Positions 2,947 through 40,840 are shown, counted from the stretch's first letter. The stretch: DNA of 64,000 nucleotides from Chloroflexota bacterium (GCA_965261635.1 OZ253463.1:811879-875878); one strand, 5' to 3'. Program-made: numbers and translations. Notes: generated by a model not told the origin, from the letters alone.

Positions 2947-3255
2947 CTACAGACTCTGAGATGTTCGCCAGTCCCACTTAGCTGAGGAGTCTTGGGTGGC
3001 CTTTGTATTGCTATAAGCAATCGGGAGCAATTTGCCCAGGGCCACGCCTCTTTGGTCTAAGTAGTACTCGATAGCTGCAATAGGGCTAGGTGGATCAATC
3101 GGGTAGTGCTCCGCTGCATAGACTTCGACTAGGTCAACGAGCATCTCAAGCTCGTCGCCCTCAGGCGTGCCTTCCTCTGCATGGAATATCTCACGAATCC
3201 TAGTAAGCGCAGCCTGATATTCCTGCTCTGTGCGTATAGGATCGGAGTTTGCCAT
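2947..3255 (-). CDS. higA: HigA-family antitoxin-like protein (cassette 1)
   Basis: The N-terminal region (EQEYQAALTRIREIF...GTPEGDELEMLVDLVEVYAAEHYPIDPPSPIAAIEYYLDQRG) matches the conserved N-terminus of HigA antitoxins. The C-terminal HTH looks atypical or degenerate. Sits immediately downstream of higB with a 2-nt gap. Confidence 0.65.
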   Translation of the reverse strand: MANSDPIRTEQEYQAALTRIREIFHAEEGTPEGDELEMLVDLVEVYAAEHYPIDPPSPIAAIEYYLDQRGVALGKLLPIAYSNTKATQDSSAKWDWRTSQSL

Positions 3256-3257
3256 CC

Positions 3258-3548
3258 CTAGATCTCCTTGACGTCTATGCGGTCGTACTCCGCGTGCGTA
3301 CCGATGAATCGGATGTCAACTAACCTGCGTTTGTAGTTGATTACCGCTACCAGTCGATATGAATTGCCCTTGACATTGAAGACCACACGATTAGGCGGAA
3401 TTATCCTTGCTGGGTGGAGTTGGGTTACCCTTTCCGGCGTCTCCCAATCTTCACTACACACCCGATCGTACCAGAACTCAAGCTGCTGCTTTGCATTCGT
3501 GTGTCGCTTCAAAAACCTGTAAAGTCGATCGGGGTTAGTAATTCGCAC
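3258..3548 (-). CDS. higB: HigB-family type II toxin (RelE/ParE superfamily mRNA interferase), cassette 1
   Basis: 96 aa with the typical HigB C-terminus (RLVAVINYKRRLVDIRFIGTHAEYDRIDV). Precedes higA in the classic toxin-first order. Confidence 0.8.
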   Translation of the reverse strand: MRITNPDRLYRFLKRHTNAKQQLEFWYDRVCSEDWETPERVTQLHPARIIPPNRVVFNVKGNSYRLVAVINYKRRLVDIRFIGTHAEYDRIDVKEI

Positions 3549-4059: not shown

Positions 4060-4350
4060 TTAGGAAACCTTTTCGTGTTTCTCGGTTAGGGGAGTCAGGT
4101 CAGACGGCGTAGTGCCGGTTTGGTCGATTTGGAATTCGATAGCCGGACTGGGGCTGGGAGGGTCAATTGGGTAGTGCTTGTCCTCATAGCATTCGACTTG
4201 GCTGACAAGCGTTTCCAGTTCGACTCTGTCGGGGTGAATCTCTTCCGTAATCTGTCCTTGCGGTCCTGAAAGGGCGTCCATGAGATCGGATATCCGGGCC
4301 AAAGCTGTTTCGTATTCAGCCTCGTTACGGATTGTCTCAATCTTCTCCAT
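4060..4350 (-). CDS. higA: HigA-family antitoxin-like protein (cassette 2)
   Basis: 96 aa (RNEAEYETALARISDLMDA...ELETLVSQVECYEDKHYPIDPPSPSPAIEFQIDQ), the same family as 2947-3255. Sits 2 nt downstream of higB copy 2. Confidence 0.65.
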   Translation of the reverse strand: MEKIETIRNEAEYETALARISDLMDALSGPQGQITEEIHPDRVELETLVSQVECYEDKHYPIDPPSPSPAIEFQIDQTGTTPSDLTPLTEKHEKVS

Positions 4351-9371: not shown

Positions 9372-10574
9372 CTATTCGGTCGGCGCGCTCCCCAACACCT
9401 TGTAGCCGTGATTCTCCACCGTTCTCTCGGCAACGGGCAGGACCTCCACGACCAGTCTGGAGAGGCCCACCACCTCACCGTCGGCGTCGAATCTGTAGTC
9501 GTTGCCGATCGCGCCGCTCCAGGTAATCTCGTACATGCAGTCGCGGAAGCCGTCGGCGTCCTGGTCATCGCCGGTTTGTTTGAGGCATTCGGCGGCGATG
9601 TACACGTTATCATAGGCGGAACCGAGGTGCCACGGCAGCGTGACATAGTCGTAGCGTTCCCGGAAGTTGGCCAGGACCTCTTGGGCTTTCGAATTGTCAG
9701 GGCGCAGGTCCGCCGTGATCGCTTTCATCCCGGTGGCGTCGTCGCCGGCGATCTCCAACGATGTAGTGCCCACAGACACCGTCTCGGCGTAGATGGGGCC
9801 TTGATAGCCTAACTCTCGCGCCTGCTTTATGATCACTCCGGCCGCAAACTCGGACTGCGGCGCCAGGTGAAGCGCATCCGGTTGATCGTCGAGCAGTTTG
9901 CTCAGTTGGGTCCGGAAGTCGGTAACGTCGGACGCGTACGTCTCCTGGGACACCACCTGTCCGCCCAGTTTAGTGAACTGAGCTACCGTGGTGCGGCGTA
10001 CGCCTTCGGCGTAGTCGGTGGCCTCGGTGATGGTGGCCAACCTGCGGACGCCGTCAGCCCACATCAGGTTACCGGTGGCGACACCGACCTCAACATCGCT
10101 GATCTGAGTGCGAAAGATGTAGTCGCCCGCGTTGGCGATGTCCGGGCTGCTCGCCAGCCCTGAAAACAGAATAACCCCGTCGGCCTCCGCCAGCGGGGCA
10201 ACCCCAAGCATGGCGCCGCTGCAGGAGGTTCCCAGGATGATCTTCACGCCATCTACGTCTGTCAGCTTTCGGTAAGCGGTGACCGCTTCCTTGGCGCTGC
10301 ACTGGGAGTCCTCCACAATGAGTTCAAGCATCCTACCACCGATGCCGCCTGCGGCGTTGATTTCGTCCACGGCCATCTGCTTGGCGCGCACGGCCACATT
10401 GCCGTAGGTCTCGCCAGGGCCTGTGAGCGACTCCATCACGCCTATCCTAAAGGGCCCTTTTTCACCGCCTCGCGCGTCTTGCTCCGTGTCCGCGGCGGCG
10501 CAGCCAATGACAAGCAAAGCGAGCAGCCATAGCGCCCAGAGCCAAATAAACCGTTTCCACGATACGGGCCGCAT
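9372..10574 (-). CDS. ABC transporter periplasmic substrate-binding lipoprotein (LivK/HAAT, Peripla_BP_6 type), paralog 1
   Basis: Lipoprotein signal (LLALLVIGCAA) followed by a type I periplasmic binding fold (FRIGVMESLTGPGETYG...). Roughly 75% identical to the paralog at 10955-12166. Confidence 0.85.
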   Translation of the reverse strand: MRPVSWKRFIWLWALWLLALLVIGCAAADTEQDARGGEKGPFRIGVMESLTGPGETYGNVAVRAKQMAVDEINAAGGIGGRMLELIVEDSQCSAKEAVTAYRKLTDVDGVKIILGTSCSGAMLGVAPLAEADGVILFSGLASSPDIANAGDYIFRTQISDVEVGVATGNLMWADGVRRLATITEATDYAEGVRRTTVAQFTKLGGQVVSQETYASDVTDFRTQLSKLLDDQPDALHLAPQSEFAAGVIIKQARELGYQGPIYAETVSVGTTSLEIAGDDATGMKAITADLRPDNSKAQEVLANFRERYDYVTLPWHLGSAYDNVYIAAECLKQTGDDQDADGFRDCMYEITWSGAIGNDYRFDADGEVVGLSRLVVEVLPVAERTVENHGYKVLGSAPTE

Positions 10575-10954
10575 TGCGCTCTTTTCTGTGAGGATACTCT
10601 AGGGTATCTAATCGGGTAGTTGCTCTAACACCATTAGCGTCAATCCGGCAAGTGTTCGGTAGAACATACTAACCTGGAATACGAGCGGTCAACAATGATT
10701 CTCAGGGAAGCAAGGTCGCTGTAAAAACCTTTAGCGGTGATTGCGGAGCGCAGAGCGTCCACATGTTCTGCGCGCAGTGGTGTGCGCTGATACGGAGAGC
10801 GCCAAACCGTTCGTGCTGAGTGGTCTTCGCGAAGCCCTTGTCGAAGCATGAACGGTCTGGCAAGCACTTCATCGTGAGCTGTCTTGTGGTAAGTTCAAAC
10901 CGCGCAATCCACGGGTGATCCGTAAGCACACCGCAAACACAATATGCAGTGGCC

Positions 10955-12166
10955 CTACTCCGTCGGCGCGCTGCCGAGAACCTTGTAGCCTTGGTTCTCC
11001 TCAGTCCGCTCAGCTACGGGCAAGACTTCCACCACCACGTTGGCTAGGCCTACGACCTCGCCGTTCTCATCAAAGGTGTAATTCTCGCCGATAGCGCCGG
11101 TCCAGGTGATTGCGTATAGGCAGTCTCGCATGCCATCGGCGTCTTGGTCGTCGTTGGTCTGCTTGAGGCACTCGGCGGTGATGAATACGTCATCATAGAC
11201 CGAGCCGATGTACCAGGCCAGCGTCACGTAATCGTAGCGCGCCCGGAATTTGGACAGCACTTCCTGGCCTTTGGCGTTGCTAGGTGAGATATCCGCCAAG
11301 ATGGCCTTGGTACCCGCGGCAGCATCACCGGCGATCTCAAGCGCCGTGGCCCCAACCGGCACGATGTCTGCATAGATTTGGCCCTCGTAGCCCAGCTCGC
11401 GCACCTGCTTGATGATGGTGCCGCCGTTGAACTCAGACTGGGCGGCGATGAGGAGAGCATCGGGATTTTCGCTAAGCAACTTCGTGAGTTGGGTCCTAAA
11501 GTCAGTGGTATCGGAACTGTAGCGTTCTACCGCAGCCACGGTGCCGCCGCGCTTTTCAAACTGCGCAACGGAGGCTTGGCGCACACCCTCGGCATAGTCG
11601 GTGGTTTCCGATAGGGTCACCAGTTTGCGGATGCCGTCCGCCCACATGACATTGCCGGCGTCAATACCCAACTGGGCATCGCTCATGGCCGTGCGGAAGA
11701 TGTAGTCTCCCGCGTTGGCGATGTCCGGATTGGTTGCCAAACCGGAGAAGAGGACCACGCCGTCGGCTTCAGCCAGTGGCGCGGCGCCCAGCATGGCCCC
11801 GCTGCAGGAAGTGCCGAGAATGATCTTGACACCGTCCACGTCGGTTAGCTTGTTGTACGCGGTGATGGCGTCTTGGGCGGAGCACTTGGAGTCTTCCACA
11901 ATAAGCTCCAGCATGCGGCCGTTGATGCCGCCCGCGGCGTTTATCTCGTCCACGGCCATCTGCTTGGCCTGCAGGGCCACGCTGCCGTAGGTCTCGCCCG
12001 GGCCCGTGAGCGACTCCATCACGCCAATTCTAAAGGGCGCTTGCTCACCCTCTTGCATATCTTTGTCTTCGTCCGTGGCGCTATCGCCGCCACATGCAAT
12101 CACCAGCGAGGCCAGCAGCGCCAGTGCTGCCAGCAAAACAGCTTTCTTCAAGATTAGAATTCGCAT
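10955..12166 (-). CDS. ABC transporter periplasmic substrate-binding lipoprotein (LivK/HAAT type), paralog 2
   Basis: Starts at MRILILKKAVLLAALALLASLVIACGG with AGAGGAG 7 nt upstream (plus-strand 12173-12179). The ORF track extends to 12202, but the extension lacks a ribosome-binding site. Confidence 0.85.
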   Translation of the reverse strand: MRILILKKAVLLAALALLASLVIACGGDSATDEDKDMQEGEQAPFRIGVMESLTGPGETYGSVALQAKQMAVDEINAAGGINGRMLELIVEDSKCSAQDAITAYNKLTDVDGVKIILGTSCSGAMLGAAPLAEADGVVLFSGLATNPDIANAGDYIFRTAMSDAQLGIDAGNVMWADGIRKLVTLSETTDYAEGVRQASVAQFEKRGGTVAAVERYSSDTTDFRTQLTKLLSENPDALLIAAQSEFNGGTIIKQVRELGYEGQIYADIVPVGATALEIAGDAAAGTKAILADISPSNAKGQEVLSKFRARYDYVTLAWYIGSVYDDVFITAECLKQTNDDQDADGMRDCLYAITWTGAIGENYTFDENGEVVGLANVVVEVLPVAERTEENQGYKVLGSAPTE

Positions 12167-12370
12167 GGCACACTCCTCTATGAGAATGCGTACGATACCC
12201 ATATTGCAAGATACAGTAGCATGTTCCCGTCAATCCCGCAAATATGGGGGTACATGGTCAACTATCATTTGCTGAGTCTTCGCCTTCGAGTTTGCTAGGA
12301 AGCCCGTTAGGTGTTAGTGTCCGTGTTGGAAGGACCTTGCCTTTGAAGCTTTCTAGTTGAGAGACTCGAG

Positions 12371-13732
12371 ATGTTGACAAACTTGCGGTTGGAGAACTTT
12401 AAGCCCTGGGAGAACACTGGAGACATAGCCCTTAAGCCCATAACCGGTTTTTTTGGCTCTAACAGTTCTGGAAAGACGAGCCTCCTCCAAGCTTTGCTAC
12501 TTATGAAGCAAACAGTTGATTCTCCAGACCAAGGTATAGTATTTCACTTTGGCGATGAAAACACACTTGTGAACCTCGGCGACTTTGATAGCGTCATACA
12601 TAAACACGACACGATGAGAACCCTAAAGATTTCTCTCAATTGGAACTCTAGGGAAAGAGTTAGGATACCGAAGGTTTACAAAGGTGGGTTTGTAAGTGAG
12701 GGAGAAGAGATTGGATTTAGTGTTGAAGTAAGAGAGAGTACGAACGACTCCAAGCGATCGCTGATGTTGGAGAAAATGGAATATCAGTTAGCCGACAGTC
12801 GGTCGTTCGGTATGGAGAAACGAGTTGGTGAGCTAGCTTATGGAGTGTACGCGAGGGGCGGGAATCTCGATCTGCCAGAATCAACTTGGACTCCTGATCG
12901 TTTTTCCCGTCAGTCGAAGTTTTGTGAATTCCCATATCAAGCTGAAGACTTGTTCAATGACCGCAGTTTCATTTTTGGCCTCAGGTATGAGCTAGTAAGG
13001 CAACTCCAGGATTTGCGCTACGTCGGCCCTCTAAGAATATATCCAAGGCGCATCTATCAATGGTCTGGTGTCCAACCCTCTGGAGTGGGCTCTGGTGGCG
13101 AATTTGCAATTGAGTCTATGTTGTCAACTCGGGACGGGAATTTCGAAAGATTGGGCTCGGCACATCTCACCGTAGAGGAGTATGTCGCACAGTGGCTCAA
13201 GCGCCTTGGAGTTGTTCATGACTTTCGTGTTGAGTCGCTAGGTGAGGGCAGGCGGCTCTTTGAGGTAAAAGTTCGTAAGACCTCTGAATCGCCAGATGTC
13301 TTTCTCACCGACATTGGCTTTGGTGTGTCCCAGTTACTACCGGTGTTGGTGCAGTGTTTCTACGTACGCGAAGGGTCAACGGTAATCCTAGAACAGCCAG
13401 ACATTCACTTACACCCATCAGTTCAGGCTGAGCTTGCCGACGTATTCATAGACTCTTGGAAGGAACGAAGGGCGCAAATCTTGTTCGAGAGTCACAGTGA
13501 GCACTTGCTCCGCAGACTTCAGCGTCGAATTGCTGAAGGAGAGATTCAGCAAGAAAGTGTACGCTTGTACTTTTGCTCGACAGACGACGATGGGGCCTCG
13601 AATCTAAGTGAGCTCGAATTGGACAAATTCGGGAATATTTCCAATTGGCCCAAGGACTTCTTTGGTGACCAATTTGGTGAAATGGCTGCAATGAGCAGTG
13701 CTGCTCTAAATAGACAAGGAGAGGCTAAGTGA
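12371..13732 (+). CDS. ABC-like AAA ATPase (AAA_21/AAA_15 with C-terminal DUF3696-like region), putative defence-system motor/sensor
   Basis: N-terminal RecF/SbcC-like motif (LRLENFKPW...GFFGSNSSGKTSLLQAL), Walker-B/D-loop-like VILEQPDIHLHP, and ILFESHSEHLLRRLQRR. Low GC versus the flanks. Overlaps the downstream PIN gene start (GTGA). Confidence 0.8.
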   Translation: MLTNLRLENFKPWENTGDIALKPITGFFGSNSSGKTSLLQALLLMKQTVDSPDQGIVFHFGDENTLVNLGDFDSVIHKHDTMRTLKISLNWNSRERVRIPKVYKGGFVSEGEEIGFSVEVRESTNDSKRSLMLEKMEYQLADSRSFGMEKRVGELAYGVYARGGNLDLPESTWTPDRFSRQSKFCEFPYQAEDLFNDRSFIFGLRYELVRQLQDLRYVGPLRIYPRRIYQWSGVQPSGVGSGGEFAIESMLSTRDGNFERLGSAHLTVEEYVAQWLKRLGVVHDFRVESLGEGRRLFEVKVRKTSESPDVFLTDIGFGVSQLLPVLVQCFYVREGSTVILEQPDIHLHPSVQAELADVFIDSWKERRAQILFESHSEHLLRRLQRRIAEGEIQQESVRLYFCSTDDDGASNLSELELDKFGNISNWPKDFFGDQFGEMAAMSSAALNRQGEAK

Positions 13733-14226
13733 GGGCGCAGAAGGCGGACTTGGTGATGGATACAAATGTCGCCGTCGTTGCTAACGGAAAAGCCGAGCAA
13801 GCAAACAAAGAGTGCGTCGGTGAGTGCATAGCCAGGTTAAGTAAACTGCGGAATGAGTGTCTTCTCTTGCTCGATTTCAAGAACCTAATCTTGGACGAAT
13901 ACCGCAAGAACCTTCACCCCTCAGGCCAACCTGGGCTTGGAGATTCCTTCTTTAAGTGGCTTTTTGAAAATCAGGCAAATCCAGAGTACTTCCGGAGAGT
14001 CTACATAGAGTGTCACCCCGATCGTGGCTTTGTGGAATTCCCAACCGATCCAAGACTTTCTTCTTTCGATCAGGATGATCGCAAGTTCGTTGCCGTAGCA
14101 CTGGCGAGCGGGACCAATCCGAAGATTCTAAACGCGTCGGATACGGACTGGTGGCTCCATCGAAATGCACTGCAAGAGCACGGCATTGAGGTGGAGTTTA
14201 TTTGCCTTGAACTAATGAGGGCATGA
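13729..14226 (+). CDS. PIN-domain nuclease-like protein, putative effector coupled to the upstream ATPase
   Basis: Acidic PIN quartet in the canonical order: VMDTNVAVV (D), ILDEYRK (E), SFDQDDRKFVAVA (D), ILNASDTDWW (D-x-D). GTG start overlaps the ATPase stop; an alternative ATG lies at 13756. Low GC. Confidence 0.55.
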   Translation: MRAQKADLVMDTNVAVVANGKAEQANKECVGECIARLSKLRNECLLLLDFKNLILDEYRKNLHPSGQPGLGDSFFKWLFENQANPEYFRRVYIECHPDRGFVEFPTDPRLSSFDQDDRKFVAVALASGTNPKILNASDTDWWLHRNALQEHGIEVEFICLELMRA

Positions 14227-14275
14227 CTCCAAAAAGCACTTTCCCTCCAGCGCGCCGGTTATGAGCCGCGGGGCT

Positions 14276-15076
14276 CTAGACCCTGTGCCCTGCCAGCAGC
14301 TTTTCCACGTGTTTCCGCACGCTGCTGCGGTCTGCGCTGCAGACTAGGCAGGTGAACGGGAATTCGCCGGTGGCGCGGAAGCGTTTGGCGTTGGGATAGT
14401 GGAAGTCGCCGGTGTGGGTCATGAACTGTCCCCACCAGCCGTAGGTGTAGGCGGGGCCGGAGACTCGGCAATCCTCGTGCCACTCCGGGGGGAAGAGCGA
14501 CCGAAACGGTTCAAACGAGTTGATCCAACTGCCGCACTGCACAATCTGGATGTCCGGCCGGTCTTGCTCAAGGTCGTCCAGGAGTTTCAGCAGCGATCGC
14601 GTCAGCGCGGGCATATCCCGGAAGGGCGACCGGGGCTGCAGCACGTTCGTGAAGTGGATGTGGACGACATCTTCCGCATAGTCGCGGCTGAAGCAGCCGT
14701 AGGGCGTGGGCGGAATGACCTGCCCCGCACCCTCCCAGAGGTTGCCCTTGCGTTCCCCGGCGAGGCGTTCCTCCATAGTCGGGAAGAGCAGCGCGTAGGC
14801 GGCTTCTTCCAGCGCTTCGGTGGTCGCGTCGGCACGGTGTTTAGCGAAGAATTCCTTCAGTTGGTCCACTAGCGCATTCCACTCAGGATCGTTGTGGCCC
14901 TGTGCAGGATGGTGTTTGCCGTCCCAGAGGTGCGTACGCCGGTAAATATCGACGCGGGTGGTAATCAATTCCTCGAACGGGCGCTGCTCGGTCTGCAGCA
15001 GCCGGTGCACGTACCAGACCTTGAGTTTCACGCACTCGCGATCATAGTTGCGCCTGATTTCTTCTCGCGTGGGCAT
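14276..15076 (-). CDS. Hypothetical protein (high GC, probably core genome)
   Basis: 266-aa ORF with good coding bias and no recognisable motifs. Confidence 0.5.
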   Translation of the reverse strand: MPTREEIRRNYDRECVKLKVWYVHRLLQTEQRPFEELITTRVDIYRRTHLWDGKHHPAQGHNDPEWNALVDQLKEFFAKHRADATTEALEEAAYALLFPTMEERLAGERKGNLWEGAGQVIPPTPYGCFSRDYAEDVVHIHFTNVLQPRSPFRDMPALTRSLLKLLDDLEQDRPDIQIVQCGSWINSFEPFRSLFPPEWHEDCRVSGPAYTYGWWGQFMTHTGDFHYPNAKRFRATGEFPFTCLVCSADRSSVRKHVEKLLAGHRV

Positions 15077-17032: not shown

Positions 17033-17363
17033 AGTCTTGGACTTAATTTACCTTCATCTTTAGGTCGGGTCTTTCCGCCGCCGCTCTATCGCGCGCTCCA
17101 CGCCGGTGCTAATCGACGACGCCAATTGCGCTCGCGGCAGTTGTAATGGGGCTCCCATAGGGGGTCAAGATGTCTGGTTGTAAAACTCTTTGAATCTGCT
17201 AATCGCATAGTAAATGATGCGCCGTGCGCTGGGCAATGGGAACATGACACTGGTAAGGTGCTATGCTAGAATCGTGGCTTGGGTGAGGCGAAAAACACAC
17301 CCTACGCCGGGCCGAAGCGGTGGTTACGAATATCAGCAACCTGTCAATAAGGAGTGGTTCTTG

Positions 17364-17861
17364 ATGCGATGGCGTTTACGTGTTCCTTTGGCGCTCGTCG
17401 CGATTCTTTTCTCGATGGCATTGATAATTGGTTGTGGTGGTGAGGAAGAAGAAGCATGGAGTTGGGACGAAGGGCCACCAACGCCAACGCCTGATACAAG
17501 TGTTACCGAGGCAGTTCCTACTCCATCCGGTCCGGTCGACCCGGAATCTATTGAAGTGATTGTGGATCTTAGCACGGGCGACGCCGAGCGCGGAGAAGAG
17601 CTCTTTGAGGAAAAGGGCTGCGTAGCCTGCCATAAGATTGCGGAAGACGGCCCCGGCGGCGAGGTTGGTCCTGTGCTCGCCGGCATTGGCGACATAGCGA
17701 ACCGACCGATGTTGGCTGCAGACATTGCGAACACGCCGGAGAACATCTGGCGCTGGGTGCAATTCCCGCAGAAGATCAAGCCCGGCACGGAGATGGCGCC
17801 CCTGGGGATGGATGGCCAAGAGGCTGCCGACCTCGTGGCATATCTCCAAACATTGAAATAG
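17364..17861 (+). CDS. Mono-haem c-type cytochrome lipoprotein, paralog 1
   Basis: Signal/lipobox LIIGCGG. One haem-binding CVACH motif and a distal Met (GTEMAP). AAGGAG 8 nt upstream of the ATG at 17364. The longer listed ORF (17214) is unlikely. Confidence 0.8.
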   Translation: MRWRLRVPLALVAILFSMALIIGCGGEEEEAWSWDEGPPTPTPDTSVTEAVPTPSGPVDPESIEVIVDLSTGDAERGEELFEEKGCVACHKIAEDGPGGEVGPVLAGIGDIANRPMLAADIANTPENIWRWVQFPQKIKPGTEMAPLGMDGQEAADLVAYLQTLK

Positions 17862-17909
17862 GGAAGAAGGCAGGCTTTTGGCTGTGTCGCATACGTCGGG
17901 GCGCAAAGG

Positions 17910-18407
17910 GTGCAAGGCTTGATGCATAAGTATGTGCGTCTATCCTTGGCGATCTTCGCAATGTTTCTCATGATGGCACTGGCCGCAGCCTGCTTTCCGT
18001 GGGACAGATCGGATTCGTTGCCAGCGCCCACAGCGGAACCAGCGAGAGTTGCACCGGATGTTACTCCCACCCCTACGCCTCCCGATGATATTCCGCCGCC
18101 GCCAGAAGGTTATTTGGAACGAGCGGATGTACGGAAGGGAGAAGAGCTCTTTGAGGAAAAGGGCTGTGTCGCCTGTCATAAGATCGCGGAAGACGGCCCC
18201 GGCGGCGAGATTGGTCCTGTGCTTGCCGGCATTGGCGATGCGACGAACCGACCGATGCTGGCTGCAGACATTGCGAACACGCCGGAGAATATCTGGCGCT
18301 GGATTCAGTTCCCGCAACTGATAAAGCCAGGTACGGAGATGGCGCCCCTAGGGATGGATGGGGAAGAAGCCGCTCACCTTGTGAAATACCTCTTGACGTT
18401 GAAGTAG
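17910..18407 (+). CDS. Mono-haem c-type cytochrome, paralog 2
   Basis: The CVACHKIAEDGPGGEIGPVLAGIGD...GTEMAPLGMDGEEAAHLVKYL region is roughly 85% identical to paralog 1 over the C-terminal 100 aa. Confidence 0.8.
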   Translation: MQGLMHKYVRLSLAIFAMFLMMALAAACFPWDRSDSLPAPTAEPARVAPDVTPTPTPPDDIPPPPEGYLERADVRKGEELFEEKGCVACHKIAEDGPGGEIGPVLAGIGDATNRPMLAADIANTPENIWRWIQFPQLIKPGTEMAPLGMDGEEAAHLVKYLLTLK

Positions 18408-18446
18408 GGAGTAACGCACGCTGTTGGCTCACTCTCGCGTGTCGCA

Positions 18447-19031
18447 ATGCATAGGGAACGAGGAATGATGCGCGGACGGGTGCGCCTTGTCAGAGGGCTA
18501 GCGGGAGCGTTGCTTGCGGCGGCACTTTTCGTGAGCTGCTTTCCGTGGGATAGATCGGAGCCAACGCCAGTGCTTCCAACGGCTCCGCCCGTGGCGACGA
18601 GCCCGGCGTCGGCGCCGACACCGACTGCCGAGCAAAGTGCAGCCAGTGAAACGGCCACGCCGGAGCAGACACCGACCCCTCGGCCTACCGCAATCATAGT
18701 TACGCGCACTCCCAGGCCGCTGCCCACCGTGCCGCCGGACTTGCTGAGCCAGGGTGATGCAAGGCTGGGTCAAGAGCTCTTCGAGAGCAAAGGGTGCATC
18801 GCTTGCCATCAAATTCGGGGTGAAGGCGGCGACACCGGCCCGGCCCTCGACGGCATCGGCGACCGATCGCGGCGGCCGATGCTGGCGGGGAGCCTGGAGA
18901 ATACGTCGGAGAATAAGTGGCGCTGGATTATAAATCCGCAACTCGTCAAGCCCGGTACGGCCATGTCTCCGCAGCCGCTCAATCCCGAAGAGGCTGCCCA
19001 CCTGGTGGCATACTTGGAAACCTTGAGATAG
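18447..19031 (+). CDS. Mono-haem c-type cytochrome, paralog 3
   Basis: CIACHQI haem motif and GTAMSP. Pro/Thr-rich linker after the signal peptide. A start at the MMRGR Met (18465) is also possible. Confidence 0.75.
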   Translation: MHRERGMMRGRVRLVRGLAGALLAAALFVSCFPWDRSEPTPVLPTAPPVATSPASAPTPTAEQSAASETATPEQTPTPRPTAIIVTRTPRPLPTVPPDLLSQGDARLGQELFESKGCIACHQIRGEGGDTGPALDGIGDRSRRPMLAGSLENTSENKWRWIINPQLVKPGTAMSPQPLNPEEAAHLVAYLETLR

Positions 19032-23794: not shown

Positions 23795-25693
23795 TCAACC
23801 AAGAATGCCCTCCAGCTCCATACTATCTTCCCGCACAAGTTCGTAATCGACCGGCGTTTCATCGTACTCCTCAACCATTTCGGATGAGATAGGCTTTCCC
23901 ATCGCCTTCCTGATTGCATTGAGAAGAGCCGACTCTCTAGCGCGGAAGTGTCGATCAAAATCGCTTGACCACAAGTGCTCGGGGTCAATGAGATGCGAGT
24001 CTAGGTAGGTGCTCAACGAGTCTTGCGAAACACCTTCCGATGTGATGCGATTTAGGTATGCCGCAGGCGCCTGGCCGCCGATGCTACGATTTGTTCGTGC
24101 TGTGAGGGGCGTCTTATTGACTATCGAGTCGCAGCGCGCTGCCTCTATCCCCTGCTCGCGGCACCATCTCTGGGGAAAGATGTGATGAATGTCAATCCTC
24201 TCGTCGAAGTAGCCCTGTATCGACGACTCCTCGCCAGTGATCCAATCACAAGCGCCTTCGCGCAAAAGCAGTGCGTAAATACCCTTATATGCCGCGCTAT
24301 TTCGGGTGCGCAGTGTAAGCAGTCGGGTCGGAGCGAACTCAGCGTCATAGATCGTCCCTGGCTCTGGCCCTTCGTCTCGAATCCACTTCACGACCTCTGG
24401 AAGGTCACGGGCAAACCGCGTCTCAACTGAACCACCATACAATTCTCCAAGGACGCCGCACCAATACCAGCGCGCGAGCTTTACCCTAGCAGGCTGCGGC
24501 TCCCAATCACTGTCCAGTACTGTGAGAATCGCGGCCATCGGGATCAACTGGCTGCCATAGGGCAGAAACTTCGCGTCGTAAAGGCGCTGCCCGTGGAGGA
24601 AGCGCGCCGTCCTCTCGAAGCCTTTCATCAGTGGATCCGCCCACCCCTGGTACTCGTCAAGACTAAGCCGCAAAATGTCTGCGCGCTTACACCCCACTCC
24701 CGGCACCCGGTCCGCGCCCGTGCCATCTCGGATGGCAACCCGCCGCCGCTCCAGGGTCGCGAGCAGCGTTATAGCCTGAAGAAAGTCCGTATTGGACACG
24801 CCAGCGAGTATCGACTGGGAGTGGATCGTGCGCTCCCGTTCCTCCCAGTCTGGCCGCAGTTGGAAGTCGTCAGCTGCAAAGATTGCGGTTAGCAGCTCGA
24901 AAACGGTTAGTGTCACGCCTCCAGTGTTCACCTTCTCAAATACTTGGCACACAGCCTGTTTCGGCGTGTCCTTTCCAAGCTCAATTACTGGCACCTGGTA
25001 CAGCTGAATGCGCTTGACGATCTTCTTTTCAAACTCGTTCCACAGTTCTATCTTCTCTCTGTCGTAATCCCAGTATTTTTCGAAGCCCACGCGCCAGTCG
25101 CTCGAGTCGAATGCCTGGGACAGCGGAAAAAGCATCGCCTTATACTCTAGATCGGGAGTCGAGTAGTCCTCTTCGACCTTGCGCCCAAAGCGTTTGATCT
25201 GACGGTCCGCGGGCAGCGAGACCACCGCGTCCTCACGATCAGCAATCGGGTCAAGAGCCAGCGCCATCCTTATGTAGTACCAGCGCTCGATTTTTCGTCC
25301 GTGCTGGTCGCGGGTGTGAACTGGCTGGTCAGGACGGAGAGACTGGAACAGCGAGGTTATCCGCTGCTGGCCGTCTAGGATCAGCCGCTCGGCCTCCTGC
25401 TTTGGCCCCGGCGCACCCTCAAGCGGGCGTTGCTTGAAGCGAACGCTATCGCTGCCGACCTCAAGCATCATGACCGCACCGATAGGGTATCCGAGGGTGA
25501 TGCTTGAGAGAAGGCTCCGCACGTGTTCGTCGTCCCACACCCAGCCTCGCTGAAAATCGGGAAGTTGTGTACTCCCGTCCGATGAACTATCTAGCACCCC
25601 TTGGAGGAATTCATTTTCGATACCGTAGCCCATGTAATCCATCGTGTGCCCCCTTGGGTTGTCGTTGCCAGTCGAACTGCTCGTAACATCCAA
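23795..25693 (-). CDS. GmrSD-family type IV restriction enzyme-like protein (DUF262 N-terminal plus DUF1524 C-terminal His-Me finger)
   Basis: DUF262/ParB-like motifs FQRGWVW and DGQQRITSL. C-terminal DUF1524-like DIHHIFPQRW...NKTPLTARTN (HNH/His-Me finger). Confidence 0.75.
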   Translation of the reverse strand: MDVTSSSTGNDNPRGHTMDYMGYGIENEFLQGVLDSSSDGSTQLPDFQRGWVWDDEHVRSLLSSITLGYPIGAVMMLEVGSDSVRFKQRPLEGAPGPKQEAERLILDGQQRITSLFQSLRPDQPVHTRDQHGRKIERWYYIRMALALDPIADREDAVVSLPADRQIKRFGRKVEEDYSTPDLEYKAMLFPLSQAFDSSDWRVGFEKYWDYDREKIELWNEFEKKIVKRIQLYQVPVIELGKDTPKQAVCQVFEKVNTGGVTLTVFELLTAIFAADDFQLRPDWEERERTIHSQSILAGVSNTDFLQAITLLATLERRRVAIRDGTGADRVPGVGCKRADILRLSLDEYQGWADPLMKGFERTARFLHGQRLYDAKFLPYGSQLIPMAAILTVLDSDWEPQPARVKLARWYWCGVLGELYGGSVETRFARDLPEVVKWIRDEGPEPGTIYDAEFAPTRLLTLRTRNSAAYKGIYALLLREGACDWITGEESSIQGYFDERIDIHHIFPQRWCREQGIEAARCDSIVNKTPLTARTNRSIGGQAPAAYLNRITSEGVSQDSLSTYLDSHLIDPEHLWSSDFDRHFRARESALLNAIRKAMGKPISSEMVEEYDETPVDYELVREDSMELEGILG

Positions 25694-39517: not shown

Positions 39518-40840
39518 CTAGGATCGCGTCTGCTCAAGGCCCTTCATCAGTTCCCGCAACAATTGGTTGAATTGCCTCTTGAGCACGTTCAATTCTCGTC
39601 CTTCATGTTCCCAGCGAACGCTTGGGGAGCCAATCGAGAAAACCCACCGACTCTGATGGGCGTGGACTTCACCCTTAACCACCAAGAGACTGTGTACATC
39701 CTGTTTTCCCTGGAACGTCGTCAAGTAGGATGTGAACTTAACAGAGAGGGAGAGCAATTGGTTTGGTGCGTTCAGTTGATCAAGGATGGGTTCTAGGTTG
39801 GCTGAGTCTTCGCAAAGACGAAGTACTTTGCCTTCCGCAGTAGTTGCGAAGACACTAGCGTGTGTCCTCACTGTTCCGAACACATCTGAGAGCTGACGTG
39901 TCTTATCCACGCAGTAGTTGTAGAAGGGATACAAAACAGCTTCGACATACTCCTTCGCAGAGAATGCGTGATCCGTCGCACTTGTAAGCGATTGCTTGAA
40001 GAGTGCGATCTCTTTGTCGATGTCATCGATGTCGTCGGTCAGTTCGCCACGGGCGGCCTTTAGATGAAGTTTGAGGGCATACTCACAGCACTGCGCAATG
40101 TAGTCTATAAACGCTGTTAGGTCCTCGGTTTTGTCAGCCTGTTCGAGTTTATCGAGGTACTCGTCTCGGTTGTCCTGTCGAATCATCGCCACCGTGTAGC
40201 CGTGCTTGATGAGGATCATATTCATCAAGAGCCGGGCCATGCGGCCGTTGCCATCGTCGAAGGGATGGATACGTACGAAGCGATAGTGGAAGGTGGCGGC
40301 CATGACAATAGGGTGTTCGCCCCCACGCTCTCTGGCTCGGTACCAGTCGATGAGGTCGCTCATCGCTTGCTTCACTTGATCTGGAGGAGTGAAGAAATAG
40401 ATTTCGCCAGTCGACGTTTCTACATTGTTAGGCTTGGTCTTGTAGTCACCGATTGAAATTGTTCGCCGTACCAATTGCCCGTCCGGGGTCTTTGCCTCGG
40501 TCTCATAGGGATCTTTCAACAACACGCGGTGGAGATTCCGGATGAAGACCTCGTTGAGTTCTTGGTTATCCTTGACCGCAGCCTCAATAGCCTGTAGGGC
40601 ACTGTCGTGCCCTTCGATGTCCAGGTGGTCGCGCATCGGCTTGCCATGAGCAGTAAGTCCGTGAAGAATGAGGCTGCGGGTCTCTCCGAGGGTGAGGGTG
40701 TTGCCTTCAATGGCATTGGAGTTGTAGTTCGCCTCGAGCCGCAGCTTCTGCTCAACCTGAGCAAGGACAGTTGGCGGCAGCGGACGCAGACTGTCCAGCT
40801 CTTCCTTCAGCCTCGTGATGGTCTCAAGTACATTGACCAT
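39518..40840 (-). CDS. Fic/Doc (Fido) family protein (putative AMPylator/toxin)
   Basis: Canonical Fic motif HPFDDGNGRMARLL. Confidence 0.85.
   Translation of the reverse strand: MVNVLETITRLKEELDSLRPLPPTVLAQVEQKLRLEANYNSNAIEGNTLTLGETRSLILHGLTAHGKPMRDHLDIEGHDSALQAIEAAVKDNQELNEVFIRNLHRVLLKDPYETEAKTPDGQLVRRTISIGDYKTKPNNVETSTGEIYFFTPPDQVKQAMSDLIDWYRARERGGEHPIVMAATFHYRFVRIHPFDDGNGRMARLLMNMILIKHGYTVAMIRQDNRDEYLDKLEQADKTEDLTAFIDYIAQCCEYALKLHLKAARGELTDDIDDIDKEIALFKQSLTSATDHAFSAKEYVEAVLYPFYNYCVDKTRQLSDVFGTVRTHASVFATTAEGKVLRLCEDSANLEPILDQLNAPNQLLSLSVKFTSYLTTFQGKQDVHSLLVVKGEVHAHQSRWVFSIGSPSVRWEHEGRELNVLKRQFNQLLRELMKGLEQTRS

Follow-up and report, generated by a model that had tools for sequence, protein, structure and literature searches.

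What are two overlapping, low-GC genes doing between a transporter operon and a set of metabolic genes in a Chloroflexota genome? They lie in a window of 64,000 nt, by which we mean the whole stretch of DNA analyzed here. An initial annotation had read them as a DUF3696-type, ABC-like ATPase coupled to a PIN-domain nuclease and suggested an undescribed anti-phage system. Profile and fold comparisons bear out the structural reading. The pair, however, belongs to a defence system that already has a name, HEC-03, as well as HMMs for its detection and experimental validation, and is no new class.

The features of the locus are collected in Table 1. Open reading frames of 453 and 165 codons are present with all the motifs quoted for them, and these are conserved in the 68 homologues of the ATPase and the 69 homologues of the PIN protein. 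The ATPase stop codon (TGA, 13730-13732) overlaps the PIN start codon (GTG, 13729-13731), an overlap that had been noticed before and is seen as GTGA at 13729-13732. A strong Shine-Dalgarno sequence (AAGGAGAGG, 13716-13724) precedes the PIN start by ~7 nt, and the junction, read directly from the sequence, is ACAAGGAGAGGCTAAGTGAGG. This layout is the classic one predicted to give translational coupling. The identical 4-nt overlap occurs at three homologous loci (L010, L013, L019). A sigma-70-like promoter was not found for the pair; Chloroflexota promoters may differ from the sigma-70 consensus.

Table 1 Coordinates of the ATPase-PIN pair, its motifs and other features of the window (res, residues of the encoded protein).
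Feature	Position	Strand	Details
Low-GC cassette, ~2.0 kb	12245..14275		Non-coding leader, ATPase gene, PIN gene, short 3' spacer
ATPase gene	12371..13732	+	ATG start, 453 aa (ORF listing)
Walker A / P-loop GSNSSGKTS	12455..12481	+	res 29-37
Insert 1, variable, beta-rich	12611..12970	+	res ~81-200
Walker B / D-loop VILEQPDIHLHP	13382..13417	+	res 338-349; Gln342 at the catalytic-Glu position
C-terminal DUF3696 region	13544..13687	+	res 392-439; Pfam DUF3696 E 2.5e-11
Coupling junction	13716..13732	+	Shine-Dalgarno AAGGAGAGG, then GTG overlapping TGA as GTGA
PIN gene	13729..14226	+	GTG start, 165 aa (ORF listing)
GmrSD_N (DUF262) protein	23795-25693	-	632 aa; 9.6 kb from the pair
HigB toxin	3258-3548	-	Adjacent partner; ~9 kb upstream of the pair

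The system was identified by scanning both proteins with the profiles of PADLOC-DB v2. The ATPase matched PDLC04148 ('HEC-03B') almost from end to end (E-value 2.5e-130, 434 bits, residues 1-449 on 1-452 of 458), and the PIN protein matched PDLC04147 ('HEC-03A'; E-value 5.7e-36, residues 8-161 on 3-153 of 159). The profiles ranked second for the ATPase, Menshen NsnB (E-value 5.7e-61, 205 bits against the 434 of HEC-03) and PDC-M55A (E-value 4.4e-58), reached less than half of the HEC-03 score, and those of AriA and GajA matched weakly, over the core. For the PIN protein, the HEC-03 profile was the only PADLOC match, with none to NsnC. The initial annotation had itself named a match of this kind as the end of its novelty claim, which therefore falls. 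The subunit names are swapped between the two sources: HEC-03A is the ATPase and HEC-03B the PIN protein in the original paper, whereas the PADLOC HMM names are reversed.

HEC-03 was described as an ABC ATPase together with a VapC-like PIN protein (Payne et al., bioRxiv 2024, doi 10.1101/2024.01.29.577857). The name stands for Hma-embedded candidate 03, after the discovery criterion that the genes lie inside Hma or a different multigene defence system. According to that paper, one representative was cloned together with its native promoter region and assayed in E. coli, where plaquing dropped by orders of magnitude for at least two phages. Both genes were needed for this defence, and the strains were left uninduced, given apparent toxicity with IPTG. 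The tested pair comes from Pseudomonas cichorii ATCC 10857 and consists of WP_025259138.1 ('DUF3696 domain-containing protein') and WP_025259137.1 ('hypothetical protein'; Table S2 of Payne et al.).

In P. cichorii, the ATPase gene is likewise followed by the PIN gene, with a 14-nt overlap. The PIN protein of the window is 40% identical to WP_025259137.1 from end to end (E-value 1e-33), and its ATPase is 38% identical to WP_025259138.1 over the 399 residues printed in Table S2 (E-value 1e-90). As in HEC-03, the two genes are adjacent and co-directional, with the ATPase first. They are not embedded in Hma or another multigene defence system, as the homologues at eight other loci are (L002, L007, L008, L010, L011, L013, L015, L019), but embedding served as a heuristic for discovery and does not define HEC-03. 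In sequence, architecture and predicted fold, the pair agrees with HEC-03 throughout. We consider it highly probable that the pair is HEC-03 and a defence module. The anti-phage role proposed in the initial annotation is thereby well supported through homology to an experimentally tested system, at 38-40% identity and from another phylum.

The ATPase has an ABC fold of the SMC/Rad50-like kind, not an AAA+ fold. Across 68 homologues, G29, N31, S32, S33 and K35 of Walker A are invariant, as are H346, H348 and E373-H375, the ESH of the H-loop. The motif ILEQPDIHLHP covers residues 339-349. A profile alignment to OLD (6p74) and Rad50, whose corresponding Walker B segments read TVIIEEPEMYLHP and IILDEPTVYL, places E341 at the acidic position of Walker B and Q342 at that of the catalytic Glu. 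Position 342 is Gln in 62 of the 68 homologues, His in the other six and acidic in none, and the tested P. cichorii ATPase likewise reads MEQPE. Replacing the catalytic Glu by Gln is a standard way of trapping ABC ATPases in the ATP-bound state. Because the catalytic Glu is absent, this family is likely to act as a switch that binds ATP and turns it over slowly or not at all, rather than as a motor, unless D/E344 substitutes; this residue could stand in for the catalytic Glu, in which case the ATPase might hydrolyze ATP. Further features, the invariant R222/R227 and G316-F-G318, match those of NsnB, for which a degeneration of DE to EN, of the Q motif to Arg and of SGG to GxG has been described (PMC12065111).

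Two regions outside the catalytic core stand at opposite ends of the conservation scale. Insert 1 has the lowest conservation in the family (0.37-0.56, compared with 0.8-0.9 in the core), falls inside the stretch most diverged from the sister allele described below and, in an AF2 model, includes strands across residues 85-173. We propose it as a sensor or specificity region; Payne et al. suggested that inserts set trigger specificity. The DUF3696 block at residues 421-440 has the highest conservation of the protein (0.94), and the DUF3696 tail is our candidate for the PIN-binding region.

The PIN protein carries DTNV, LDEY, DQDD and SDTDW in its translation. D11, E57, D114, D117 and D138 are invariant among 69 homologues; at the first acidic position, the Asp found here corresponds to a Glu in the protein tested from P. 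cichorii. Pfam PIN models stayed below threshold on the 165-aa protein. The check by profile and structure that the initial annotation had proposed nonetheless returned a PIN fold whose acidic site is intact and whose nearest structures are VapC toxins. The VapC-like fold and the conserved active-site residues of HEC-03 are thus both present.

The initial annotation had taken the low GC content of the pair as a sign of horizontal acquisition, and comparison with a sister genome strengthens this view. GC content runs at 0.44-0.51 across the pair and at 0.58-0.64 on both flanks in a sliding profile (0.48 for the pair, 0.58 for the whole window). One Chloroflexota MAG, OZ244145.1 (L001/L016), shares its gene order with the window throughout the region. 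Its flanking proteins are 87-99% identical to those of the window, whereas its ATPase and PIN protein reach 63% and 71%. At the nucleotide level, a sliding comparison gave 88-97% identity up to ~12244 and 87-98% from ~14300, but 43-84% inside the gene-bearing part, with an essentially unalignable leader. These sharp borders leave only the ATPase and PIN genes inside the cassette. We found no border repeats around it.

Substitution estimates (Nei-Gojobori) separate the cassette from its surroundings just as clearly. Ten flanking genes differ from the sister genome by a dS of 0.06-0.32, whereas in both cassette genes the synonymous sites are saturated (pS 0.75, with pN 0.18-0.22). Since faster protein evolution cannot saturate synonymous sites, the two alleles are much older than the split of the genomes. 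The slot was filled anew, either through recombination or in an independent acquisition. In keeping with this, the sister ATPase is nearer to several other metagenomic homologues (67-69%) than to that of the window (63%). Both alleles have a GC content of 0.48-0.49. A third syntenic contig (L017) carries the allele of the window, at 96% nucleotide identity over the entire cassette; where it seems to differ from this allele, the cause is assembly frameshifts. Taken together, GC dip, identity borders and saturated synonymous sites indicate that a ~2-kb cassette was acquired horizontally between a liv-type operon and a conserved 266-aa gene.

The surroundings of the cassette are mainly metabolic. 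To its left, on the minus strand, lies the liv-type ABC transporter operon (two ATPases, two permeases and two Peripla_BP_6 binding proteins), which is divergent from the pair as previously described; the gene directly upstream of the pair encodes a divergent Peripla_BP_6 solute-binding protein. To the right, the 266-aa gene, which has no family matches, is followed by genes for a GFO/IDH/MocA oxidoreductase, a methyltransferase, three cytochromes c, a GHMP kinase, a sulfatase and a GMC oxidoreductase. No integrase or transposase was found among the window ORFs scanned with Pfam or PADLOC, in agreement with the earlier remark on transposases.

A defence-rich neighborhood, as claimed in the initial annotation, is an overstatement for this locus. 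Of the GmrSD system placed 10 kb away, a GmrSD_N (DUF262) protein does exist at 9.6 kb, separated from the pair by seven housekeeping genes and the uncharacterized 266-aa gene. Its PADLOC matches (PDC-M55C, E-value 1.5e-24; NsnA, E-value 1.7e-14; HEC-05) cover the N-terminal half only, and no DUF1524/HNH half was detected. The several toxin-antitoxin modules reduce to HigB with its partner, the sole clear toxin of this type found, beside an orphan antitoxin-like ORF, an HTH_3 ORF and a Fic protein. With a distant GmrSD_N protein, one clear toxin and mostly metabolic neighbors, there is no compact defence island here.

The GmrSD_N protein raises the question of whether the pair is a degenerate or split Menshen system, with the ATPase as NsnB, the PIN protein as a truncated NsnC and the distant DUF262 protein as a displaced NsnA. 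The ATPase indeed matches NsnB with an E-value of 5.7e-61 and shares its DUF3696 tail and degenerate motifs, while the GmrSD_N protein matches both NsnA and PDC-M55C and the ATPase PDC-M55A. At one homologous locus (L015), a GmrSD_N homologue 46% identical to that of the window lies ~5 kb from the HEC-03 pair. The HEC-03 profile, however, scores 434 bits on the ATPase and the NsnB profile 205. The PIN protein has no NsnC match. Its catalytic acidic residues are complete and it lacks a C-terminal nuclease domain; in NsnC, by contrast, the major PIN families are all without catalytic residues, and such a domain is present (PMC12065111). Moreover, nsnA directly precedes nsnB in Menshen, while here a divergent solute-binding gene lies upstream, the DUF262 gene is set apart from the pair by eight unrelated genes, and the cassette border shuts out everything but the ATPase and PIN genes. 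The split-Menshen reading is already largely refuted and in our judgment very improbable.

The identification as HEC-03 is further supported by the homologues of the pair. Scanning one genome per species, we found nine loci encoding relatives of the PIN protein, in Chloroflexota, Latescibacterota, three Dehalococcoidia, Longimicrobiales, an Enterobacteriaceae MAG, Rhodocyclaceae and Poribacteria. In all nine (seven lineages), an ATPase homologue lies directly upstream on the same strand, and the same arrangement occurs at other metagenome loci with intact assemblies. Across the genome loci, the divergence of the ATPase and that of the PIN protein are closely correlated (Spearman rho = 0.98). 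As judged from these comparisons, ATPase and PIN protein are inherited as a unit. Eleven plasmid records carry the PIN gene, in ten of them with matches also over an annotated DUF3696 gene, and the plasmids with homologous pairs include conjugative and mobilizable ones. Phage genomes were searched as well and essentially lack the pair.

The neighborhood analysis called for in the initial annotation thus found the two genes consistently together, and contexts of restriction-modification (R-M) or Hma were frequent. At L010, L013/L014 and L019, the pair lies in a Type I R-M operon, where it has hsdM/hsdS on one side and hsdR on the other, and at L002 it likewise lies within such an operon. At L007 and L008, it is flanked by genes for a DUF1156 methylase-type protein and a DUF499 ATPase, at L008 with an SNF2 helicase upstream; this layout is the Hma arrangement from which HEC-03 was discovered. 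At L011 and L015, the pair adjoins DUF1156 genes. An AAA_15/21 and DUF3226 pair was seen close by at L004, L011 and L018. A defence-rich context therefore holds for homologues elsewhere but is a weak argument at the locus of the window.

Given the metabolic neighbors and the fact that no consensus promoter was detected, the pair might also be a relic that is silent or decaying, or consist of a RecF/SMC-like housekeeping ATPase and a PIN protein for RNA processing, without a current role in defence. Yet both reading frames are intact with all motif residues conserved, and pN (0.18-0.22) lies far below pS (0.75), a sign of purifying selection on the cassette genes. Near-identical copies (clusters of at least 90%) exist in several other assemblies. 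Low GC content, a patchy phyletic distribution and the embedding of homologues in R-M and Hma operons also speak against this reading, which we regard as extremely improbable.

Another reading takes the pair as mainly a toxin-antitoxin or addiction module that stabilizes mobile DNA, with the PIN protein as toxin and the ATPase as an unconventional antitoxin. The structural proximity to VapC, the presence of homologous pairs on conjugative and mobilizable plasmids and the assignment of AAA_21 to an ATPase family associated with AbiEii/type IV toxin-antitoxin systems point in this direction, as does the toxicity of the tested HEC-03 on induction (Payne et al.). Against it, phage defence by the tested system needs both genes (Payne et al.), and the pair is found repeatedly inside R-M and Hma operons, not in plasmid maintenance loci. 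We therefore consider a primarily addictive function improbable. The two roles are nevertheless compatible, because abortive-infection systems often resemble toxin-antitoxin systems.

For HEC-03 as a defence system, we propose the following mechanism. The SMC/Rad50-like ABC ATPase, as an oligomer, would keep the PIN nuclease inactive through the DUF3696 tail, and the hypervariable Insert 1 would recognize a phage-derived cue. The nucleotide-binding site, devoid of the catalytic Glu, would work as an ATP-binding switch and not as a motor, and a change of nucleotide state would release or activate the PIN domain. The freed PIN domain could then cut RNA, so that translation stops and the infection is aborted; tRNA, rRNA or mRNA may be the target, as the PIN protein is VapC-like. 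We suggest the switch because Gln or His at the catalytic-Glu position parallels the EN of NsnB, and the sensor because Insert 1 is the most variable region. The clamp is suggested because the DUF3696 block is the most conserved and because AlphaFold 3 predictions for Menshen show the PIN-like N-domain of NsnC gripped by an NsnB dimer through its DUF3696 tails (PMC12065111). The specific steps of clamp, switch and RNA cleavage are tentative. In general terms, the pair probably works like the ABC-ATPase-plus-nuclease systems of the PARIS, Septu and Gabija type.

PARIS senses anti-restriction factors. As the pair is often found inside Type I R-M and Hma operons, HEC-03 may back up restriction, perhaps by sensing such factors in a similar way. 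Overall, the locus is very likely a stand-alone, horizontally acquired copy of HEC-03.

A wider reading can be put forward, although we rate it as less likely than not: HEC-03 might be a minimal sibling or precursor of Menshen with an active PIN domain, combining an ATP-gated clamp formed by an ATPase impaired in hydrolysis, a VapC-like RNase sequestered by the tail and a sensor in Insert 1 with allele turnover at a fixed chromosomal slot. Deeply diverged alleles would then be swapped by recombination through conserved flanks, amounting to a turnover of sensor specificity. In the passages searched, neither Payne et al. nor the Menshen paper (PMC12065111) proposes this kinship, and the latter does not mention HEC-03.

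Beyond the identification, what the analysis adds is the allele replacement, the family-wide change of the catalytic Glu to Gln or His and the proposed kinship with Menshen. Two diverged alleles in near-isogenic backgrounds, with their differences concentrated in Insert 1, offer natural material for swapping specificity. The DUF3696 tail, which NsnB also has, and the loss of the catalytic Glu throughout the family lead to testable hypotheses on how ABC-ATPase sensors control PIN-fold partners. The range of HEC-03 is extended to Chloroflexota and related uncultured lineages, and the pair occurs free-standing as well as embedded.

Among known systems, Menshen (NsnABC), reportedly introduced by Millman et al. 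in 2022, provides with NsnB the nearest other ATPase family (E-value 5.7e-61). Both systems combine an SMC-like ABC fold and a DUF3696 tail with a PIN-fold partner, and in both the catalytic Glu is changed to an amide (EN in NsnB, EQ here) and SGG is replaced by GxG. Unlike Menshen, the unit in the window has, beside its NsnB-type ATPase with a DUF3696 tail, neither an adjacent upstream gene for NsnA (ParB-DUF262 and ParBDB) nor an NsnC fusion. Its PIN protein keeps the catalytic residues and is the whole effector, whereas the PIN domain of NsnC is an inactive adaptor fused to another nuclease. We rejected identity with Menshen on the missing adjacent NsnA, the stand-alone PIN protein with its intact acidic site and the lack of an NsnC match.

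In PARIS (AriA/AriB), Septu (PtuA/PtuB), Gabija (GajA/B) and OLD, the effectors are Toprim/DUF4435, HNH or a fused Toprim, whereas here the effector is a PIN protein; the likeness is confined to the ATPase core, while inserts and C-terminal tail differ. PARIS, Septu and Gabija were rejected since the small protein, with its PIN fold and its sole PADLOC match to HEC-03, is not the effector of any of them (AriB DUF4435-Toprim, PtuB HNH, or GajA Toprim with the GajB helicase). VapBC shares the VapC-type PIN fold with its D-E-D-D acidic site. The partner here, however, is a 453-aa ABC ATPase encoded upstream and not a VapB-type antitoxin, and the PIN protein has extra elements (165 aa, compared with ~130). 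We rejected VapBC as no small DNA-binding VapB ORF is present in 12245-14275. With HEC-03, finally, the pair shares both families at full length, the ATPase-then-PIN order with an overlapping junction, and an ABC ATPase with DUF3696 tail and EQ Walker B beside a VapC-like PIN protein. It differs from the tested P. cichorii pair in sequence (38-40% identity) and in its Chloroflexota host, and it stands free of Hma, between a transporter operon and metabolic genes.

We delimited the HEC-03 cassette, which carries an ABC-type ATPase gene and a VapC-like PIN gene, by comparison with the sister genome (the syntenic Chloroflexota MAG OZ244145.1). Convergent with the PIN gene lies a gene for a 266-aa protein, for which neither Pfam nor PADLOC gave a match. 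The sister genome encodes a protein 93% identical to it, and the gene is missing at every non-syntenic HEC-03 locus, which places it outside the cassette. Just beyond the cassette, the sister genome carries an inserted IS481-family transposase gene, which separates the 266-aa gene from a GFO/IDH/MocA oxidoreductase gene; this insertion is not present in the window.

Tandem paralogues occur in two flanking regions. Two Peripla_BP_6 solute-binding proteins, ~73% identical, head a liv-type operon, and three cytochrome c genes, 40-60% identical, follow each other in succession. The binding-protein gene adjoining the cassette showed the highest dS among ten flanking genes tested (0.32 versus the sister genome), which may mark a recombination tract.

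Further genes possibly related to defence were found in the window and around HEC-03 homologues. The 632-aa DUF262 protein matched the PADLOC profiles PDC-M55C (E 1.5e-24), HEC-05/BrxU-like (E 4.7e-22) and NsnA (E 1.7e-14). Its C-terminal ~350 residues matched no Pfam family at E<=0.001, and DUF1524/HNH was therefore not detected. A homologue with 46% identity is encoded ~5 kb from the HEC-03 pair at another locus (L015). The protein may represent a separate single-gene defence of the type IV restriction-like kind. At three unrelated loci, a second two-gene module lies a few kb from the HEC-03 pair; it consists of an AAA_15/AAA_21 ATPase (~366-370 aa) and a DUF3226 protein (~211-214 aa) and is possibly another ABC-ATPase-based defence pair co-localising with HEC-03. 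At two other loci (L013 and L019), Type I R-M operons carry further inserted genes besides the HEC-03 pair, an example of how several candidate defence genes can be embedded next to one another.

Toxin-type genes are present elsewhere in the window. A HigB-family toxin gene adjoins a gene for a 102-aa partner, whose "HYPIDPPSP..AIE" motif recurs in a 96-aa ORF. Because no toxin gene lies beside this ORF, it may be an orphan paralogue of the putative antitoxin. The 440-aa Fic-domain protein may be a further defence or toxin gene; it is distant from the HEC-03 pair.

Features of the window and of related loci (coordinates refer to the window unless a locus is given)
Feature	Position	Strand	Remarks
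102-aa HigB partner	2947-3255	-	no Pfam match
HigB-family toxin	3258-3548	-	Pfam HigB_toxin, E 3.8e-24
96-aa ORF	4060-4350	-	
Two Peripla_BP_6 solute-binding protein genes	9372-12202	-	head of liv-type operon
HEC-03 ATPase Walker B / D-loop	13382-13417		residues 338-349
Weak terminator-like hairpin	14253-14236		for 266-aa gene
266-aa protein	14276-15076	-	
Cytochrome c genes	17214-19031	+	
DUF262 protein	23795-25693	-	GmrSD_N/DUF262, confined to N-terminal part
Fic-domain protein	39518-40840	-	PADLOC SoFic (E 1.4e-34) and PDC-S04
IS481-family transposase	L016 (sister MAG) 11475-12608	-	rve, HTH_Tnp
AAA_15/AAA_21 + DUF3226 module	L004 4712-6460; L011 16955-18716; L018 6720-8459		
R-M operons with extra inserts	L013 4152-8347; L019 4964-8390		TIR_2; DUF7380/EMARD_N; DUF4062/HATPase_c_4; FitA-like RHH + PIN

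The component names are swapped between sources, a pitfall when annotations are compared: in PADLOC-DB v2, HEC-03A (PDLC04147) is the small PIN protein and HEC-03B (PDLC04148) the ATPase, whereas the preprint (doi 10.1101/2024.01.29.577857) named the ATPase HEC-03A and the PIN protein HEC-03B.

In the ATPase, the ABC catalytic glutamate is replaced throughout the family, by Gln in 62 and by His in 6 of the 68 aligned homologues (alignment A2), and the experimentally tested Pseudomonas cichorii ATPase shares this replacement. The loss parallels the "EN" Walker B reported for NsnB, the ABC ATPase of the Menshen defence system (PMC12065111), and suggests that the HEC-03 ATPase could act as an ATP-binding switch.
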